This document shows positions 6,102 through 34,678 of a stretch of DNA of 64,000 nucleotides, piece after piece. The stretch is taken from the NCBI GenBank assembly GCA_964596685.1, contig CAZQVA010000002.1, forward strand, positions 12,947 through 76,946. The letters are read 5' to 3'. The stretch is from an uncultured bacterium (GTDB lineage Bacteria; Chlamydiota; Chlamydiia; Chlamydiales; VFKH01). The notes beneath the pieces were generated by a model. That model saw nothing but the letters and a program-made list of their open reading frames with translations. It ran no database searches and was not told where the DNA came from. The translations under genes were made by a program, and so were the position numbers. Numbering within the stretch: position 1 is the stretch's first letter; each line of letters opens with the position of its first letter.

Positions 6102-6264
6102 ATACCCATCCCACCTGAAGAATTGGTTTTAGGCCGAAGAAAAAGCTTCCGCGATCGCGCCAGAAAAAAAGTCCCCATATTACTAATATGAGGACTTTTT
6201 TTCTGACTCGAGCCCGGGGCTTTCTCTTCTGTCTCAAATCCAATTCTTCAGGTGGGATGGGTAT
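6102..6264. mobile_element. MITE-like non-autonomous element, 163 bp, with perfect 25-bp terminal inverted repeats
   Basis: The left TIR at 6102-6126 (atacccatcccacctgaagaattgg) is the exact reverse complement of 6240-6264. There is an internal 13-bp hairpin (6162-6174 pairing with 6192-6204). The element has no coding capacity. A partial copy lies at 33976-34047 and a minimal copy at 27005-27047. Confidence 0.8.
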
Positions 6265-13097: not shown

Positions 13098-13255
13098 GGA
13101 CTTTAGACAAAATCTAACATTTTTACTAAGATAGCTCTAGAGCGCCTTTAAGGTGGCGCATCATCTCGAATAGCTGGGGCTATGTTTGATGACACCCTAC
13201 CTCAAATCCACCCTGGAGCGGTCGCTCTAAAAATGTTAGATGTTGTCTAGAGTCT
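13098..13255. repeat. 158-bp element bounded by an imperfect 28-bp inverted repeat
   Basis: Bases 13098-13125 (ggactttagacaaaatctaacattttta) match the reverse complement of 13228-13255 at 25 of 28 positions. The interior contains ctagagcgcc...ggcgcatcat, which is also found at 40539-40572. Confidence 0.7.
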
Positions 13256-25166: not shown

Positions 25167-27020
25167 ATGTGGCGTTTTCCTGTCATCTATGATGTCATTG
25201 TAGTAGGGGCGGGGCATGCGGGGTGTGAAGCGGCGTATGTCGCTGCACGACGCGGTGCCCGAACCCTCATGCTTACAATGAACCTCGATACCATTGCCAA
25301 GATGAGTTGTAATCCGGCAATTGGAGGAGTAGGGAAAGGGCATATCGTTCGTGAGATCGATGCGCTTGGTGGCATTATGGGCAAGATAACGGATCGCACA
25401 GCGATTCAGTTCCGTATGCTAAACGCTTCTCGCGGTCCAGCTGTTTGGGCACCACGTGCTCAAGCGGATAAGGCTGCGTATCAATTAGAAATGAAGCGTG
25501 TTCTTGAATTACTTCCTAATTTAGAAATCAAGCAGGGAACCACCGAAGGTCTGTGGATTGAAGATGATCGCATTTGCGGCGTTCACACTCTAGAGGGGAT
25601 TACCTATCAAGGAAAAACGGTTGTTCTTTCCGCAGGTACCTTTATGCGAGGGTTATTGCATTTAGGACAGACACAATATAGTGGTGGACGTGCGGGTGAT
25701 AAGCCATCGGTAGGTCTATCTGCAGATTTAGAAGCCCTTGGATTCCGTTTAGGACGTTTAAAGACGGGGACCCCCCCGCGCATACATAGTTCATCCATTG
25801 ATTATAGCTCTTGTGAACTGCAGCCCGGAGAAGATGGGGTTTGTTTTTCATTTGATGCACCTGAACCACGTTTACCGCAGGTTCCTTGTCATATCACTTA
25901 CACTACTGCTCAGACAAAAGAGATTGTAAATAAGAATCTCCATCGCTCAGCTATGTATTCTGGTGCAATTCGGGGCGTGGGGCCTCGTTATTGTCCCTCT
26001 ATCGAAGATAAATTTGTACGCTTCGCTGATAAAGAGCGTCACCAAGTCTTTTTAGAGCCTGAAGGTCTCAATACGCAAGAAGTTTACGTCAATGGGATCT
26101 CTACATCACTGCCTGTTGATGTCCAACATGACTTGATCCGCTCTATTGTTGGGCTTGAGAATGCACAAATTATGCGTCTGGCCTATGCTATCGAATATGA
26201 TTATCTCATCAGCGGACAAGTCGACTATACTTTAGAGAGTCGCACGGTTAAGGGGCTCTTTTTTGCTGGGCAAATTAATGGAACAACGGGTTATGAAGAA
26301 GCAGCAGGTCAAGGGCTTATTGCAGGAATTAATGCTGTCAACCGCGCTTTTAATCAGTCTGCATTCATTTTAAGTCGCAATGAGTCCTATATTGGAGTCA
26401 TGATTGATGATCTCATTAATAAAGGGTTGGGAGAGGAGTTTGGTTGCCAAGAGCCTTACCGCATGTTTACTAGCCGTGCTGAAAATCGCTTAATGCTGCT
26501 ACAAGGGAATGCGGATTTAAGACTACGCAAATATGGGTATGAACTTGGGCTAATTGATCAGCAGCCCTATGAAGCATTGGTAAAAAAACAAGCATGTATT
26601 GAGCATGAATGCCAACGTCTGCAAAAAGTTTTTGTTCAGATCAATGGAAAGGGATATTCTTTGGCTCAGTTGCTGGCGCGTCCTGAAAGCTCCTATGCTG
26701 AATTGCAAGCGCAATACCCAGAAAAACTTGATCCTCTGCCTCAAGATGTAACTCAACATATTGAGTGGAATTTACGCTACGCAGGGTATATCAAACGGCA
26801 GGAAATTGAGATTCAGAAACTCGAACAAATTGATACAATCGAAATCCCTGAAGACTTTAGTTATGCGAGCATTAAGGCGCTGTGTCGAGAGGCACGTGAA
26901 AAACTCTCCCGCATTCGCCCTAGGACTTTAGGTCAAGCTTCGCGCATCAGTGGGATTTCTCCTGCAGATCTCTCTATTTTGATGGTGACGCTGCGGAGAA
27001 CATGTACCCATTCTACCTAA
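25167..27020 (+). CDS. mnmG: tRNA uridine-5-carboxymethylaminomethyl modification enzyme MnmG (GidA)
   Basis: The FAD motif [14 protein letters not shown] is present and the 617-aa protein is collinear with GidA. The last five codons and the stop lie in the left arm of the 27005-27047 hairpin. Confidence 0.95.
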
Positions 27021-27047
27021 AATCCAATTCTTCAGGTGGAATGGGTA
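27005..27047. repeat. Minimal copy of the MITE arms, forming a 14-bp hairpin between convergent mnmG and fmt
   Basis: Bases 27005-27018 (tacccattctacct) pair with 27034-27047 (aggtggaatgggta), with one mismatch and a 15-nt loop. Bases 27019-27047 match the right TIR region of the 6102-6264 element. Confidence 0.8.
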
Positions 27048-29292: not shown

Positions 29293-30158
29293 AAAGGCCT
29301 CTCATTTAATGCATGAAGAAGTTTGCGACAGAATGCTGTATTTGCCGCATGTCCTGAACGAATAGCTATAATGTGAGCGTGGAAGGGGGCACCTACAAGT
29401 GCTAAATCGCCAACAAGGTCCAGGATCTTATGGCGTACCATCTCATCAGGAAATTTTAATCCATCTTTACTGAAGATCACGTCGTCTTTAATGACGACCG
29501 CATTTTCTAAGCTACCACCTTTGATAAGACCAAGCTCGATAAGCATCGAAACCTCATCATAAAGGGAAAAAGTGCGGCAATTGGCAAGTTGCGTTCTAAA
29601 ATTTTCTAAAGTGATCGGTAGGGAAAGATATTGCGAACGAATGGCGCTGATATTGGGATAATGAAGTGTGTAGCTGATTCTGTATTCATTAGAGGGGAGT
29701 GCGACAAGGTGAATGTCGCCATGAGAATAATAAACGGGCTCTTTGAGTTGAAGAATCGGCCGTGTTTTTTCCTGTTGTACGACGCCCGCTGCTTCAATCA
29801 TTTCCATGAATGGCAAACTACTTCCATCACCAATCGGTGGTTCTGGCGCGGAGATCTCAATGCGCACATTGTCGATCTGGTAAGCGTGTAAGGCAGCAAG
29901 AACATGTTCAACTGTGTGTAAGCGAACTTGTCCAATGCCTAGTGTAGTACTGCGAGAGGTGTCTTGCACATGCTCGATGAAGGCGGGTACAGTGGGACGT
30001 CCTGGCAGGTCGCACCGTTCAAAAATAATCCCCGTATCCTCTTCGGCAGGAAAAAAGGTCATAGTAACCTCGTGGCCTGTATGTAGGCCGACTCCTGAAA
30101 AAGAAGCAGATGCGCGTAAAGTTTTTTGACGGCGATAAAGAGAGGAGGTTTCAAACAT
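29289..30158 (-). CDS. lpxC: UDP-3-O-acyl-N-acetylglucosamine deacetylase
   Basis: GVGLHTGHEV and HTVEHVLAAL are present, in a 289-aa protein. Confidence 0.9.
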   Translation of the reverse strand: MFETSSLYRRQKTLRASASFSGVGLHTGHEVTMTFFPAEEDTGIIFERCDLPGRPTVPAFIEHVQDTSRSTTLGIGQVRLHTVEHVLAALHAYQIDNVRIEISAPEPPIGDGSSLPFMEMIEAAGVVQQEKTRPILQLKEPVYYSHGDIHLVALPSNEYRISYTLHYPNISAIRSQYLSLPITLENFRTQLANCRTFSLYDEVSMLIELGLIKGGSLENAVVIKDDVIFSKDGLKFPDEMVRHKILDLVGDLALVGAPFHAHIIAIRSGHAANTAFCRKLLHALNERPL

Positions 30159-30235: not shown

Positions 30236-31483
30236 TCACAATAAATTTGCTACTTGGCTTAAACCACTAAGAACATCTTCAGCATGAAGTGGCATCACTG
30301 CAAGCGGATAAGGACTCCATACAGCTAAATAATCCGTTGTAGTAGAGCATAGAGGTGTTGAAGTCGTGTTCGGGGCAATATTGGTTTGATATGGTGGGAG
30401 GTAGACTGAAAAATGCGTCTTAAATTTGTGTTGGGGGATATTTAGTCTATTAGAAAGTGCATTAAAAAAGAGTTCTTCGAATTGTTTTGGAGGGCAGTTT
30501 AGATCACCAAAAAATAAATACGGGAAATCAGGTATGCCATATTGATTAATAAGATGCGCAACGAGTTCGGAAATCGCACTCATGGATGCGTCGACTGGAA
30601 GATGAAGGTTAAACACGCGCCAGAATTCTTGCGTGCCCATATCTTTCAATATAAAGCTTTGATAGGGACGTGCGCAATCTTTGCCAAATCGAAATGACTG
30701 ATCATACTCTTCTATAGTAAAGGTTGCATCATCCCAAATGATCGCATGATGGTTTTCTTTATTGAGCCCTTCATCCTCCGTGGTGGTCATAGAATAGCCC
30801 TCAGGTAATATTTGCGCTAGCTCTCGAATAAAATCCGGGTGACATTCCTGGAGGGTCATAAATTTTTTAGGATGTGTGGGGTGTTTAAACATATCGACCA
30901 CGTGTTTGGCTAGATATCTTTCCCGCTGCGTTACGCCAGCGCTATCCGAGTGTTTAGCGGCAACGGATGATCTGCTGATACCTTGTGAATTGTTGTGTAC
31001 CCAAGAAAAAAAGCATTTGTTGAGGCTATTAAAAGAGGCGAAACGATGATTGTTGATTTGATATCCAACGGGAAGATGATCGGAATACCACATCCAGCGC
31101 TCTTGTAGTTCACCTACATAGCGTGGATTAGATCGACTGCTAAGAGTGAGTTGTTGCAGATGTGCGAAATGGCAAAGAGAACTCCAGCTTTCTGCGTCGT
31201 GACATTTGTAGGCAGCGATAAGAGGACTAGCATAAGAGCGATATTTTTCTAATATTCCAATAATGTGCTGATTTTTTTGTTCAATGGCTAGACGAGAAAG
31301 AGTAGTCCATGGGTCACTTTTGACGGGTTCACAAAAAAGTGCTGCAGGAAATAAGGGAACGAGTGGAGGGCAGGGCGACAGGGAAGAGGAAGAAGAGCCT
31401 GAAGTAAGATGTGGGGGGCCAAAAGGTGCAGCAAGAGAGGGGGACGGTGGATGTGGAGAAGAGCTGTGGATGGGTGACGTCAT
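30236..31483 (-). CDS. Candidate secreted endonuclease/exonuclease/phosphatase (EEP)-fold protein with a Pro/Ser-rich N-terminus
   Basis: The first ~50 residues are Pro/Ser-rich low complexity (SSSPHPPSPS...SGSSSSSLSPCPP). EEP-like motifs follow in the canonical order: FASFNSL, TLQECHPDF, VFNLHLP, FFGDLNCP and TTDYLAV. An SDHLPV motif lies just N-terminal of the first of these. Confidence 0.5.
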   Translation of the reverse strand: MTSPIHSSSPHPPSPSLAAPFGPPHLTSGSSSSSLSPCPPLVPLFPAALFCEPVKSDPWTTLSRLAIEQKNQHIIGILEKYRSYASPLIAAYKCHDAESWSSLCHFAHLQQLTLSSRSNPRYVGELQERWMWYSDHLPVGYQINNHRFASFNSLNKCFFSWVHNNSQGISRSSVAAKHSDSAGVTQRERYLAKHVVDMFKHPTHPKKFMTLQECHPDFIRELAQILPEGYSMTTTEDEGLNKENHHAIIWDDATFTIEEYDQSFRFGKDCARPYQSFILKDMGTQEFWRVFNLHLPVDASMSAISELVAHLINQYGIPDFPYLFFGDLNCPPKQFEELFFNALSNRLNIPQHKFKTHFSVYLPPYQTNIAPNTTSTPLCSTTTDYLAVWSPYPLAVMPLHAEDVLSGLSQVANLL

Positions 31484-31489
31484 AAGAGT

Positions 31490-32473
31490 TTAGAAAATTT
31501 TGGAATAGTAAATGGTTGGTGAAAAATAGGCGTTGACATTCCGTCCCCATACAGAGAAGCTAGCACCGATAAGTATCCCTGAGGTGTCATCAATGATATA
31601 TTCAAACATGGGTGTCAAGTTAAAGGTTACAGTTGATGGGAGCGTGATTTTACTAAAATCAGAATCCGGTGAACCTGGGTTGCCCATAAAGTGTGCTTCG
31701 CTCGTATAGGCATAGGTCATATCCATAGCAAAAGCCATCTTAGGGGTAAAACTATACTCGCCTGAAAAATTAAGAAGAAAAATATTCCCAGGTTTCAGTT
31801 GCCCTAAAGCACCTTCACCAAAGCCATAGGCGCTATAGCCATGAATATAAGTCGCAGGAGAATAAGTATATCCGAGATTCAAATTCAATTCAAAGGGATG
31901 GTAAGGAATGAGGTAGAAAATTTTTTGAATCGCGAGGAAAGCCCCCGTTTGCCACGAACCTGAACCTGTAGTAGCTGGAATGTTTGTAGAGGGGGCCAGA
32001 TGATCAAATTGTCCAAGAGGTACGTTTTGTTGTATGTATAAACGCAAATCTGGGATGGCTGTACCTTTCTGGTCGCTGAGCAGTTGGACTCCAAGGCCGA
32101 CGAGAGCATCTCCCATGCGCCATTTGTGATGGTTGCCCTGTATAATATAAGAACCATCCAATAAGAGAACAATATCAAGCCAATCGGTGATGCCTGTTTC
32201 TAAATATACGGTAGGTCCAATGAAGTAGGTGCATGGCTGACGTTGAAGGTTAAAATCATTGTCGTATGTGCCATAGACAGTATAAGGGCTCAAATAGCCT
32301 TCAAACAACAGAGAGCCTGGTGGTTGATTGTGGGCTGGGATTTGCAGCAATGTTCCAATATAATTAGGTGTATAATCAGGAGGAAGGCATTGGTCGGTTG
32401 GCGTCGCTGCATGAAGGCTGATAGAAGTCGAACTTAATAGGAAGATAGAGTTGAGAATGCGGCGACAACACAT
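31490..32473 (-). CDS. Outer-membrane beta-barrel protein
   Basis: The signal peptide is MCCRRILNSIFLLSSTSISLHA. Alternating aromatic/Gly-rich strands follow. The C-terminus YYSKIF ends in Phe, matching the OMP beta-signal. Confidence 0.6.
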   Translation of the reverse strand: MCCRRILNSIFLLSSTSISLHAATPTDQCLPPDYTPNYIGTLLQIPAHNQPPGSLLFEGYLSPYTVYGTYDNDFNLQRQPCTYFIGPTVYLETGITDWLDIVLLLDGSYIIQGNHHKWRMGDALVGLGVQLLSDQKGTAIPDLRLYIQQNVPLGQFDHLAPSTNIPATTGSGSWQTGAFLAIQKIFYLIPYHPFELNLNLGYTYSPATYIHGYSAYGFGEGALGQLKPGNIFLLNFSGEYSFTPKMAFAMDMTYAYTSEAHFMGNPGSPDSDFSKITLPSTVTFNLTPMFEYIIDDTSGILIGASFSVWGRNVNAYFSPTIYYSKIF

Positions 32474-32477
32474 AGTT

Positions 32478-34052
32478 CTATTTATATGTTTTTCTTTTGA
32501 AAATTGCTACTAATAAACACAAAGTCGAACAGCAGATAATTCCCCAGTCTCCAAGATGAGGATATAGGGTTGGATGATTGATGAGATGAACTGTTTCTCG
32601 ATGTGCGATTGTTTGATCGATCGATGTGAGGTATAAAATACGGCCTTGATGGTCGATGACACCAGAAATTCCTGTGGTACAGCTTCTAAGAAGGGGGATT
32701 CCATTTTCTGCCGCGCGCACGCGAGCATGCAAAAAGTGTTGGTAGGGTAGAGTTGAATGGGGATACCATCCATCATTAGTTAGATTTAGAAAACACTGCG
32801 CCCCCAATTGCCGAAAAAGACACATTGTGCGTCCAAATGTTTCTTCATAACAGATTGAAGGAGCAAAAGCGTGGCTACTATAAAACAGCACAGGGCTTTG
32901 ACCTGGAGCAAAAGAATCGTAGATATCAAAACGCTCTGCTAAGCTACGGCACCAGGCATAGGGGATATATTCACCAATGGGGACAAGAATTTGTTTTGCA
33001 TAACTATAATGTTCTTTTCTGTCATGGGGGATGAAGAGGGCGGACTGGTAAGTTTGTGGGAGGTTGTCTCGCTCTTCTAATCCGACCACCACATCTGCAT
33101 GCCAGCGACGCGCTAGGTTTTGTAGGCCCTCAAAAGTGGATTGCCAAATGATCTGATCCTGCCACTTGATGGGGAAGCGTTCATGTGCTTCAAAAGCAAT
33201 AGCATTTTCTGGCATGAGAATAAGATCAATGGAGTCTTTTGCATAAGGGAGCATGAGTTTTTCAAGATTTTCTAAGCGAAAAAATGGATGCTCATTAAAA
33301 GAGGCCATTTGCCCTGGTTGCACTAAAAGGATATTAAAGTTACCTAAGGGCGTCTTATTGTACTCATTTGAAAGCATCAGCACACTGCCTAGGCTAAAGA
33401 GGCCGATCAGTGTGGCACAGTAGACTTTAGGGCGTGTTAGGAAGGCGCAGCCATTGAGAAAAAAGAGCGCAAAGGAAAGGCCAAAAATCCCAAGAATACT
33501 GCTGAGTTGTAAAAGTGGAAGATTATGGCTCCATAACATCCCCCATGGATTCCACGAAAAACCCGACATAAATTCGAGGCGTAAAAGCTCCATGATTGTT
33601 CCAAACGCTGCAAGCGCACAGACTAAATAGATGTTGGAGCGCTCTTGTCTTTTGAGTTGAAAGGCGATAGCCGTGAGTAGAGTCATTTGTATGCTACATG
33701 CAGAAGCGACAAAGAGCCAAAGAAGCAGAAAAAGGGGGCCTGTCAATGTGATCGCACTCATCCATGAGATCCAAATACCCCATATGCTCATGAAAAGAAA
33801 AAATGCAGCAGGTAATTGCTTGCGCGGCGGCAAGAGCCAGAGGCCTTTCCAGAGTAACGCTAGTCCAAAAGCACCTGAAAAAAATGCTAGGAGGTCAAAA
33901 TAGGGAAATAAGAGGCCCGACTGCCCCAGTGCAAGCAATACAAATCCGCAAACAGTCCATAAAATGGCAAGATAAGGGCTTTTTTCTTGACTCGAGCCCG
34001 GGACTTTCTCTCGGTTTAAAATCCAATTCTTCAGGTGGAATGGGTGTCGCAT
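32478..34052 (-). CDS. lnt: Apolipoprotein N-acyltransferase
   Basis: An N-terminal polytopic region is followed by a CN-hydrolase domain (LILMPENA, PSICYEETF). The first ~25 codons run through a partial MITE copy, so the true start is uncertain. Confidence 0.85.
   Translation of the reverse strand: MRHPFHLKNWILNREKVPGSSQEKSPYLAILWTVCGFVLLALGQSGLLFPYFDLLAFFSGAFGLALLWKGLWLLPPRKQLPAAFFLFMSIWGIWISWMSAITLTGPLFLLLWLFVASACSIQMTLLTAIAFQLKRQERSNIYLVCALAAFGTIMELLRLEFMSGFSWNPWGMLWSHNLPLLQLSSILGIFGLSFALFFLNGCAFLTRPKVYCATLIGLFSLGSVLMLSNEYNKTPLGNFNILLVQPGQMASFNEHPFFRLENLEKLMLPYAKDSIDLILMPENAIAFEAHERFPIKWQDQIIWQSTFEGLQNLARRWHADVVVGLEERDNLPQTYQSALFIPHDRKEHYSYAKQILVPIGEYIPYAWCRSLAERFDIYDSFAPGQSPVLFYSSHAFAPSICYEETFGRTMCLFRQLGAQCFLNLTNDGWYPHSTLPYQHFLHARVRAAENGIPLLRSCTTGISGVIDHQGRILYLTSIDQTIAHRETVHLINHPTLYPHLGDWGIICCSTLCLLVAIFKRKTYK
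33976..34047. repeat. Partial (right-half) copy of the 6102-6264 MITE-like element
   Basis: gggcttttttcttgactcgagcccgggactttctctcggtttaaaatccaattcttcaggtggaatgggtgt aligns with 6191-6264 with a few substitutions or indels. Confidence 0.8.
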
Positions 34053-34678
34053 GGAAAATACTCGGGTAGAGGGGCTGTGAATTCTATTTCTTCTCTCTGT
34101 ATTGGATGGTGTAGCCGCATTTTATGGTGATGTAGAGCGATGGCATGTTTTTGAGGCCAAGGCATGCCACCATATTTTATATCGCCTAAAATAGGTGAAC
34201 CTAAAGCAGCTAGTTGGATGCGAATTTGATGATAGCGTCCAGAGATAAGTTCTACTTGCAGCAAGGAACCAGTTCCTTTTTTCAATAGAGTAGTATAGTT
34301 TAATTGAGCAAGTTTGGCACCAGGTGTGCCAGGTGGTACGATGTGTGCTTTATGATCACCATGTGTTAGCCAATGTTCGCAGGTGCCAGTGGGGCAAGAG
34401 GGGGAGGGATGAACGAAAGCCAGATAGGTCTTTGAACAAGTGCGCTCTTTGAGTGCGGCATGCAGACGCGCAAGGGCTTTGCTCGTTTTGGCACAAAGAA
34501 GAATCCCGCTGACAGGTTTGTCGATTTGATGAGCCGCTTCTAAAAAGACATTGCCAGGTTTATTTAGCAAGATCTTGAGAGTGTCGCGTGCGTTATAAGT
34601 GGCCTCTTCAGTCGTCTGACCAGCGAGTTTATTAATGACAACAAGATGGTTGTCGAGGAATAAAATGGGATGTTTCAC
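34031..34678 (-). CDS. RluA-family pseudouridine synthase
   Basis: FLDNHLVVINKLAGQ and the catalytic-Asp motif HQIDKPVSGILL are present. The last codons (THST-stop) lie in the repeat. Confidence 0.8.
   Translation of the reverse strand: MKHPILFLDNHLVVINKLAGQTTEEATYNARDTLKILLNKPGNVFLEAAHQIDKPVSGILLCAKTSKALARLHAALKERTCSKTYLAFVHPSPSCPTGTCEHWLTHGDHKAHIVPPGTPGAKLAQLNYTTLLKKGTGSLLQVELISGRYHQIRIQLAALGSPILGDIKYGGMPWPQKHAIALHHHKMRLHHPIQREEIEFTAPLPEYFPCDTHST

Follow-up and report, generated by a model that had tools for sequence, protein, structure and literature searches.

An element resembling a miniature inverted-repeat transposable element (MITE) has probably inserted at the boundary between two genes of an uncultured chlamydia-like bacterium, an RluA-family gene (rluA) and lnt, where it would supply both the end of the RluA protein and the N-terminal region of Lnt, the apolipoprotein N-acyltransferase. 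The DNA analysed, called the window throughout, is a stretch of 64,000 nucleotides (nt) from contig CAZQVA010000002.1 of assembly GCA_964596685.1 (positions 12,947 to 76,946), and all coordinates are those of the window unless another contig is named. The junction comprises the following features:

34031-34678, minus strand: RluA-family pseudouridine synthase gene, 215 aa (PF00849; TIGR00005 subfamily profile, E = 4.5e-41)
34031-34033, minus strand: TGA stop of the RluA-family gene, within the terminal repeat of the element (ACC CAT TCC ACC TGA, read as THST-stop)
32478-34052, minus strand: lnt, apolipoprotein N-acyltransferase, 524 aa, with LNT_N and CN_hydrolase domains (TIGR00546, E = 2e-68)
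34050-34052, minus strand: ATG of lnt, the sole canonical in-frame start, 2-5 nt outside the element and overlapping Pro-Cys codons of rluA (cc ATG c)
33950-34047, minus strand: partial copy of the palindromic element, spanning the outer terminal repeat, right arm and central loop plus a further 17 nt or so; secure core at 33979-34045

A partial element copy at the rluA/lnt junction

The homology of the junction copy was established against a full-length copy of the element located at 6102-6264. With the latter as query, nhmmer matched element positions 65-161 to 33950-34045 (E = 2.8e-14), and a family profile built from two organisms matched positions 68-164 to 33951-34046 (E = 2e-16). The core recovered by blastn (33979-34045) is 88% identical over 68 nt, while beyond it, in 33950-33978, 18 of 29 positions are identical in register (62%), a level attained at 10 of 127,942 window positions (empirical p about 8e-5). 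Moreover, the window contains four occurrences of the terminal 16-mer of the element (CCACCTGAAGAATTGG), where 0.61 would be expected, and at least four were obtained in none of 100 shuffles. Judged by these alignments, the junction copy is about 96 nt long. An earlier reading made from the sequence alone (the sequence-only reading) had described a 72-nt copy of the right half of the 6102-6264 element; nhmmer and blastn bear out the partial copy, but not this length. The same reading had the lnt ATG lying 3 nt outside the repeat, and outside it is, although the terminal repeat proper (ACCCAT...) is now seen to begin at 34045.

The RluA-family open reading frame (ORF) ends in ...EYFPCDTHST, followed by TGA at 34033-34031. 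As had been proposed, this stop lies inside the repeat, the coordinates of the ORF and of the terminal repeat being in agreement, and the alignment identifies the last four RluA codons and the stop as supplied by the element. The TIGR00005 match stops at RluA residue 208 of 215 (profile position 290 of 298). On the other side of the junction, the nucleotide alignments indicate that Lnt residues 3-26 are encoded by the element, in line with the earlier claim for residues 3 to about 26; the family peptide profile covers residues 4-26 and extends no further. Codons 27-34 of Lnt are probably derived from the element as well. The two ORFs share 22 nt on the minus strand, exactly the overlap reported before, as follows from their coordinates (34031-34678 and 32478-34052).

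Other copies in the window and coding behaviour of the element

Two further copies are present in the window:

6102-6264, no strand assigned: full-length copy of 163 nt, with ACCCAT...ATGGGT at 6104-6262, in the intergenic region separating recC from a divergently oriented membrane-transporter gene
27006-27046, no strand assigned: mini-copy of 41 nt consisting of the two terminal repeats only (family profile, E = 1e-7), which forms a 15-bp hairpin (z-score -5.0)

The arms of the full-length copy (6102-6182 and 6184-6264, 81 nt each) are 78% complementary, and perfectly so over the outer 25 nt; the copy folds as a near-perfect hairpin of -99.5 kcal/mol (z-score -16). The mini-copy provides the THST-stop for two convergent genes, mnmG and fmt. 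MnmG (plus strand) ends in ...RRTCTHST with TAA at 27018-27020, and Fmt (minus strand) in ...AVNTHST with TGA at 27034-27032; in mnmG the stop is TAA versus TGA in the element consensus, so that a stop is retained. In this way the THST-stop closes three genes within 64 kb (those of RluA, MnmG and Fmt), all by means of ACC CAT YCC ACC TGA/TAA. The equivalog or subfamily profiles end at residue 611 of 617 in MnmG and 313 of 316 in Fmt. Since the profiles end 3-7 residues short of the ends of RluA, MnmG and Fmt, the element begins essentially at the native C-termini and would have replaced few residues.

The coding geometry of the element is fixed. From either end inward, one frame of the element meets TGA at nt 13-15 (ACC CAT YCC ACC TGA, giving T-H-S/P-T-stop), and a second frame is open, running for 55 codons in the family members located within genes. 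The open frame meets stops within 10 codons on both arms of the 6102-6264 copy, and stays open for 32 codons in the lnt copy, a weak hint that the lnt-copy frame may be under selection. We also considered whether a TGA to TTA change and a 1-nt indel had repaired the lnt copy adaptively, and rejected this idea, since the protein P0136 (see below) and the family consensus identify the open state as ancestral and the 6102-6264 copy as decayed.

The element has several properties of a MITE. Terminal inverted repeats are found in the 6102-6264 copy and in a copy from another contig (L110, below); it is small (159-165 nt), carries no transposase gene and has the 55-codon frame as its sole coding content; and its copies are dispersed in unrelated contexts (three in the window, others in contigs L110, L115 and L116, and in 61 proteins). 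The distribution of the copies points to mobility. Intact copies are flanked by AT...AT (6102-6103 and 6263-6264; L110), a dinucleotide that could be a target-site duplication but, being palindromic, could as well belong to the inverted repeat. An element of 163 nt together with a duplication of 2 nt would account for a net gain of 165 nt in frame. No insertion sequence with the terminal repeats of the element was found within the window, and nhmmer with the family profile found no further copy in about 9 kb to the right of the window (L111). Weak nhmmer and peptide-profile matches at 29690-29800, inside lpxC in another frame, had E-values of about 3-4 and were taken as chance.

Two side observations concern the full-length copy. 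Its centre (6161-6205) is a stem-loop between A7 and T7 (AAAAAAAGTCCCCATATTACTAATATGAGGACTTTTTTT), shaped like a bidirectional intrinsic terminator. The ORF entry of the neighbouring transporter takes GTG 6252, which lies in the right terminal repeat, as its start; ATG 6297 (MDQTKTDK...) is more plausible, so a start at GTG 6252, if annotated, would be over-extended.

The element belongs to a wider family inserted in unrelated proteins

The translated frames of the element retrieved a single protein, P0127, the N-terminal part of a RecD protein encoded on an ENA contig (ERZ28655799, scaffold_3446). The copy in recD is complete:

L110, 5356-5520: complete in-frame element copy in recD, 162-165 nt, just ahead of the Walker A motif

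This copy folds at -125 kcal/mol (z-score -21) and likewise has terminal inverted repeats, while the RecC of its host is 22% identical to the window RecC over the aligned C-terminal part. The recD of L110 is split into ORFs of 234 and 282 aa by a frameshift about 170 nt downstream of the copy, which represents either an assembly error or a pseudogene.

A peptide-profile search of 1.84 billion representative proteins yielded 284 matches at E <= 1e-3; as the search profile also held RecD columns, many of the 284 are plain RecD homologues. The module was therefore counted in the best 150 of the 284 matches, together with P0127 and two cluster mates. In this set, the module was recognised in 61 proteins and is of full length (54-55 aa) in 42 of these, with the consensus (L/I/V)YPNNLKNWxFGxAKAPGxxDRKxPHISNIxxFxIVxSRELSRxPKSNSSGxLGI. 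Its position in these proteins is as follows:

Internal, in hosts of more than 130 aa: 18 proteins
N-terminal: 10 proteins
C-terminal: 4 proteins
Short ORFs, hardly more than the element: 29 proteins

Source records name three hosts, a family 3 glycoside hydrolase, MutL and RecC (the gamma subunit of exodeoxyribonuclease V), all from a metagenome-assembled genome labelled Verrucomicrobia bacterium. From the look of their sequences we take further hosts to be PdxT, RsmD, mannose-1-phosphate guanylyltransferase, TamB-like proteins, an M16 peptidase and AroB. In P0136, P0195, P0235 and P0236 an N-terminal module stands directly before a hydrophobic segment, and what we take by eye to be a lipobox-like LGGC follows the module in P0236. 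The module of P0136 is nearly identical to the 6102-6264 copy, which implies that P0136 comes from the same or a very close genome. Intergenic copies were found in contigs L115 and L116. Two hosts have irregular modules: P0140, the family 3 glycoside hydrolase, contains one full module plus a 13-aa remnant (IYPNNVKNWDLGI), and in P0149, which looks PdxT-like, the module is broken by about 23 extra residues, suggesting a nested insertion or an internal duplication.

The element peptides had no match in NCBIfam (E up to 10) or Pfam (E up to 1). In Rfam no family reached threshold; the only hits, sub-threshold generic long-hairpin microRNA precursors, were rejected. A scan of a 596-Gb genome collection with the 16-mer CCACCTGAAGAATTGG was discarded, the query being too short and giving chance matches in unrelated phyla (L001-L080). 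The 23-mers of the terminal repeat had no exact match in the JGI metagenomes, which indicates that hosts of the element are absent from that collection at the exact-match level.

Probable initiation of lnt at ATG 34052 and alternative explanations

The window Lnt was compared with 17 chlamydial orthologues that are 29-35% identical to it. All align with it from the core of the first transmembrane helix (TM1) onward, the conserved core beginning at about C35, and the columns that hold window residues E282, K353 and C401 are invariant. Against the TIGR00546 equivalog profile Lnt scores 231 bits, with a cut-off of 133. Ahead of the TM1 core the orthologue N-termini are mutually unrelated and comprise 0 to about 25 extra residues. 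The 25-34 residues of the window N-terminus (MRHPFHLKNW...) have no counterpart among the 17 orthologues; a homologous N-terminal peptide in relatives would have told against an origin in the repeat.

Because Lnt is intact, as judged by its profile score and its invariant E282, K353 and C401, it needs a start upstream of TM1. Through TM1, the in-frame ATG, GTG and TTG codons are codon 1 (ATG) and codon 39 (TTG) only, and TTG39 lies within the conserved TM1 core, where CGFVLLALGQ aligns to the orthologue consensus SFxIVAFGQPAW. This codon scan confirms that no other such start exists between the repeat and the first transmembrane segment. An in-frame TAA occurs 23 codons upstream of ATG 34052, with no start codon between the two. 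The NCBI and Logan gene calls, made independently, give the identical 524-aa product, which is found on four contigs, in Logan assemblies and in an NCBI record. Translation of Lnt probably begins at ATG 34052.

It is possible, if unlikely, that the repeat is present and that Lnt nonetheless initiates at a near-cognate codon in or after it, so that little or none of the element enters the protein. Three such codons, CTG7, ATT11 and ATT30, are in frame; two orthologues (P0007 and P0014) are annotated with just 4-5 residues ahead of the TM1 core; and ATG 34052 is not preceded by a Shine-Dalgarno motif. The three near-cognate codons, however, are equally devoid of such a motif, and bacteria seldom initiate at ATT or CTG. 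By contrast, ATG 34052 is located inside the upstream ORF, placed for translational coupling. Furthermore, the frame has been kept open in the lnt copy and has decayed in the intergenic copy, and N-terminal fusions occur likewise in other members of the family. Neither the missing motif nor the overlap of the genes is unusual at lnt, because Shine-Dalgarno motifs are weak genome-wide (a loose match precedes only 20 of the 46 long ORFs of the window) and a 23-nt overlap joins two neighbouring genes 2 kb away (L109, 477-974 and 952-1413).

Several points nevertheless weigh against the proposed insertion and the use of ATG 34052. No recognisable Shine-Dalgarno motif is found upstream of this ATG, whose claim is that of the sole canonical option in the sequence; the near-cognate codons listed above are available; and initiation at ATT30 would yield an N-terminus as short as those annotated for P0007 and P0014. 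The element origin of Lnt codons 27-34 is backed by one line of evidence, nucleotide similarity (18/29). The copies studied in this genome number three, from a 64-kb window. Finally, the searched collections contain no close relative (best Lnt match, 34% identical) in which the junction could be seen as it was before the insertion.

A second alternative, which we consider highly improbable, sees in the repeat a conserved structure acting in cis at gene boundaries, such as a terminator or an RNA or protein-binding hairpin, and takes its coding overlap as incidental. The full copies do form extremely stable hairpins, all three window copies are at gene boundaries, and the 6102-6264 copy has the stem-loop flanked by A7 and T7. 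But the L110 copy lacks this feature and the lnt copy has lost it, and the element did not qualify as a Rho-independent terminator; the full window copy sits between two divergent gene starts, where a terminator would have no role; Rfam gave no family at threshold; and copies are found within the coding sequences of many unrelated proteins, from organisms with RecC proteins that are only 22-27% identical. That lnt is decaying or untranslated, with its 5' end destroyed by the insertion and the ORF from ATG 34052 fortuitous, is the least credible explanation: the insertion may have removed the native start and spacer, relatives having a spacer of 63-73 nt, but the ORF is full length with both domains, scores far above the equivalog cut-off, keeps its three invariant residues and gives an identical product in all the sources mentioned.

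A model for the rluA/lnt junction

Returning to the insertion of a MITE-like element, we infer the following order of events. A non-autonomous palindromic mobile element of about 163 nt would have inserted at the boundary between the RluA-family gene and lnt, and the distal arm of this copy would have been lost afterwards; what remains of it stops about 17 nt beyond the centre of the palindrome, which would fit a deletion at the tip of the hairpin. A gene entering the element in the TGA frame would shed only its tail, as proposed for RluA, MnmG and Fmt, whereas a gene in the open frame would either gain 55 residues from the whole element or use the element as a leader. In Lnt, an ATG pre-existing in the rluA coding sequence would be followed by about 32 element codons and then by TM1. 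With an overlap of 22 nt, translation of lnt is likely to be coupled to that of rluA. Loss of the distal arm would have removed a hairpin of about -100 kcal/mol over the lnt initiation region, which should aid initiation; with the half copy, this region is unstructured and shows no long hairpin (z-score +1.4).

At about 25 residues, the new Lnt tail is hydrophilic with a net basic charge, and as such compatible with a cytoplasmic N-terminus; that of E. coli Lnt is cytoplasmic. Codons 27-34 (YLAILWTV) differ in nearly all residues from the corresponding family sequence (HISNxGxF), all changes being toward hydrophobic residues, and these codons, probably derived from the loop, may have been remodelled into the first half of TM1. 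A different scheme, in which a full element inserted and its second half turned into TM1, is ruled out by the alignment of Lnt from about C35 with the orthologue core SFxIVAFGQPAW.

Relation to known elements

The Rickettsia palindromic elements (RPE; Ogata et al. 2000 and 2002) are described, in two articles that summarise this work, as units of about 150 nt in obligate intracellular bacteria that carry an open frame, occur in frame in unrelated housekeeping genes and between genes, and that encode a conserved peptide; in R. bellii, 526 copies are counted there, 53 of them in protein-coding genes (PMC10969869, PMC1458961). Similarly, the chlamydial element is palindromic, lies in frame in unrelated proteins (RecD, MutL, RecC, family 3 glycoside hydrolase) and has a conserved peptide of 54-55 aa. 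However, the two have no sequence relationship, no RPE model appearing in the NCBIfam results and nothing in Pfam. NCBIfam presumably includes the TIGR domain models for RPE. The hosts also differ, being chlamydia-like or PVC (Planctomycetes, Verrucomicrobia and Chlamydiae) bacteria and not Rickettsia. In addition, the terminal repeat of the chlamydial element holds, in a second frame, a stop that closes three genes at their 3' ends, and the half element at lnt would form a start region, not an internal loop.

ERIC and the RU-1, RU-2 and RU-3 units, small mobile sequences of enterobacteria, have been found fused, whole or in part, to the 3' ends of genes, whose stop they replace, and to 5' ends; residues 4-35 of Y. 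pestis wbbJ derive from RU-2, and hydrophobic stretches derived from RU/ERIC have been proposed to be transmembrane segments (Delihas 2007, PMC2759123). The present element too replaces stops and forms N-termini, and may form a transmembrane segment. It differs in that it is unrelated in sequence and belongs to another phylum, in that a single junction copy would serve two overlapping genes, as stop for one and start region for the next, and in that the host of the N-terminal fusion at the junction is a conserved membrane enzyme and not a hypothetical ORF.

With the Correia elements of Neisseria (CREE/NEMIS) and other MITEs the element shares a size range (100-160 nt), terminal inverted repeats, AT/TA ends, dispersed copies and effects on the expression and the ends of neighbouring genes, but no sequence similarity to Correia elements was seen. 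These are mainly intergenic and known for promoters, IHF sites and RNase III processing; they are not known for a conserved in-frame module of 55 codons. The element is not of the REP/REPIN type either: it measures about 160 nt, has the head ACCCAT and is frequently intragenic, whereas REP/REPIN, the RAYT-associated repetitive extragenic palindromes, are presented as imperfect palindromes of 20-40 nt with a conserved GTAG or CGTC head in extragenic locations (PMC3733652).

In the literature consulted we found no description of a chlamydial element of this kind; a review of MITEs had no Chlamydia, and the paper combining MITEs and Chlamydiales was a survey of REP sequences. On sequence comparison, then, the behaviour of the element is of a known type (RPE, ERIC/RU), and the family is related in sequence to neither. 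That a single copy should end one gene and provide the start region of its neighbour is a consequence not without precedent. New with respect to the sequence-only reading are the greater length of the junction copy, the mini-copy between mnmG and fmt, and the broad in-frame family.

More generally, whether these insertions represent an undescribed, widespread family of protein-coding palindromes in chlamydia-like (PVC) bacteria, an independent counterpart of the Rickettsia RPE with a TGA-closed frame, an open frame of 55 codons and a net length of 165 nt, of which half an element was recruited as the lnt start region, as a cytoplasmic tail and possibly as half a transmembrane helix, is a proposal we regard as evenly balanced. 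With one frame closed by TGA, the other open for 55 codons and a net length of 165 nt, the element could settle in essential genes or at their ends. In-frame selfish palindromes have so far been treated as a peculiarity of Rickettsia, and an unrelated chlamydial counterpart would suggest a recurrent route by which small mobile DNA persists in compact intracellular genomes, creating protein termini and loops. For genome annotation, the family would explain the odd ...THST C-termini and the N-terminal extensions in these genomes and flag start-codon calls that need experimental support, and the 55-aa signature could be used as a profile to annotate or mask insertions. Lnt offers a clean test case of whether a mobile element can provide an essential membrane enzyme with its start codon and N-terminus.

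Gene neighbourhood and further observations

The window contains the chlamydial lnt...lpxC-fabZ-lpxA-fmt cluster, and the best matches of its Lnt are from Chlamydiales and Protochlamydia. The cluster is kept in two relatives (L113 and L114), where lpxC directly follows lnt. In these, lnt is preceded by the spacer of 63-73 nt, and the upstream gene is of the DoxX family in one and has a D-Ala-D-Ala ligase domain in the other; since relatives have a spacer and a different upstream gene, the juxtaposition of rluA and lnt without a spacer is lineage-specific. Two 57-aa proteins (P0122 and P0123) appeared as cluster mates of Lnt at 90% identity; they are unrelated to Lnt and a clustering artefact, and the Lnt search returned no self-match because the window Lnt had been clustered under the representative P0122.

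Two more intergenic palindromes of about 150 nt, at 13099-13254 (arms of 76 nt, 71% complementary) and 1-150 (arms of 40 nt, 95% complementary), belong to unrelated families and were excluded from the element family by sequence comparison. The genome thus seems to host several MITE-like families. Between lnt and lpxC (30236-32473, minus strand) lie ORFs of 415 and 327 aa that have no Pfam matches, the latter ending in ...YYSKIF and having the look of an outer-membrane beta-barrel protein.

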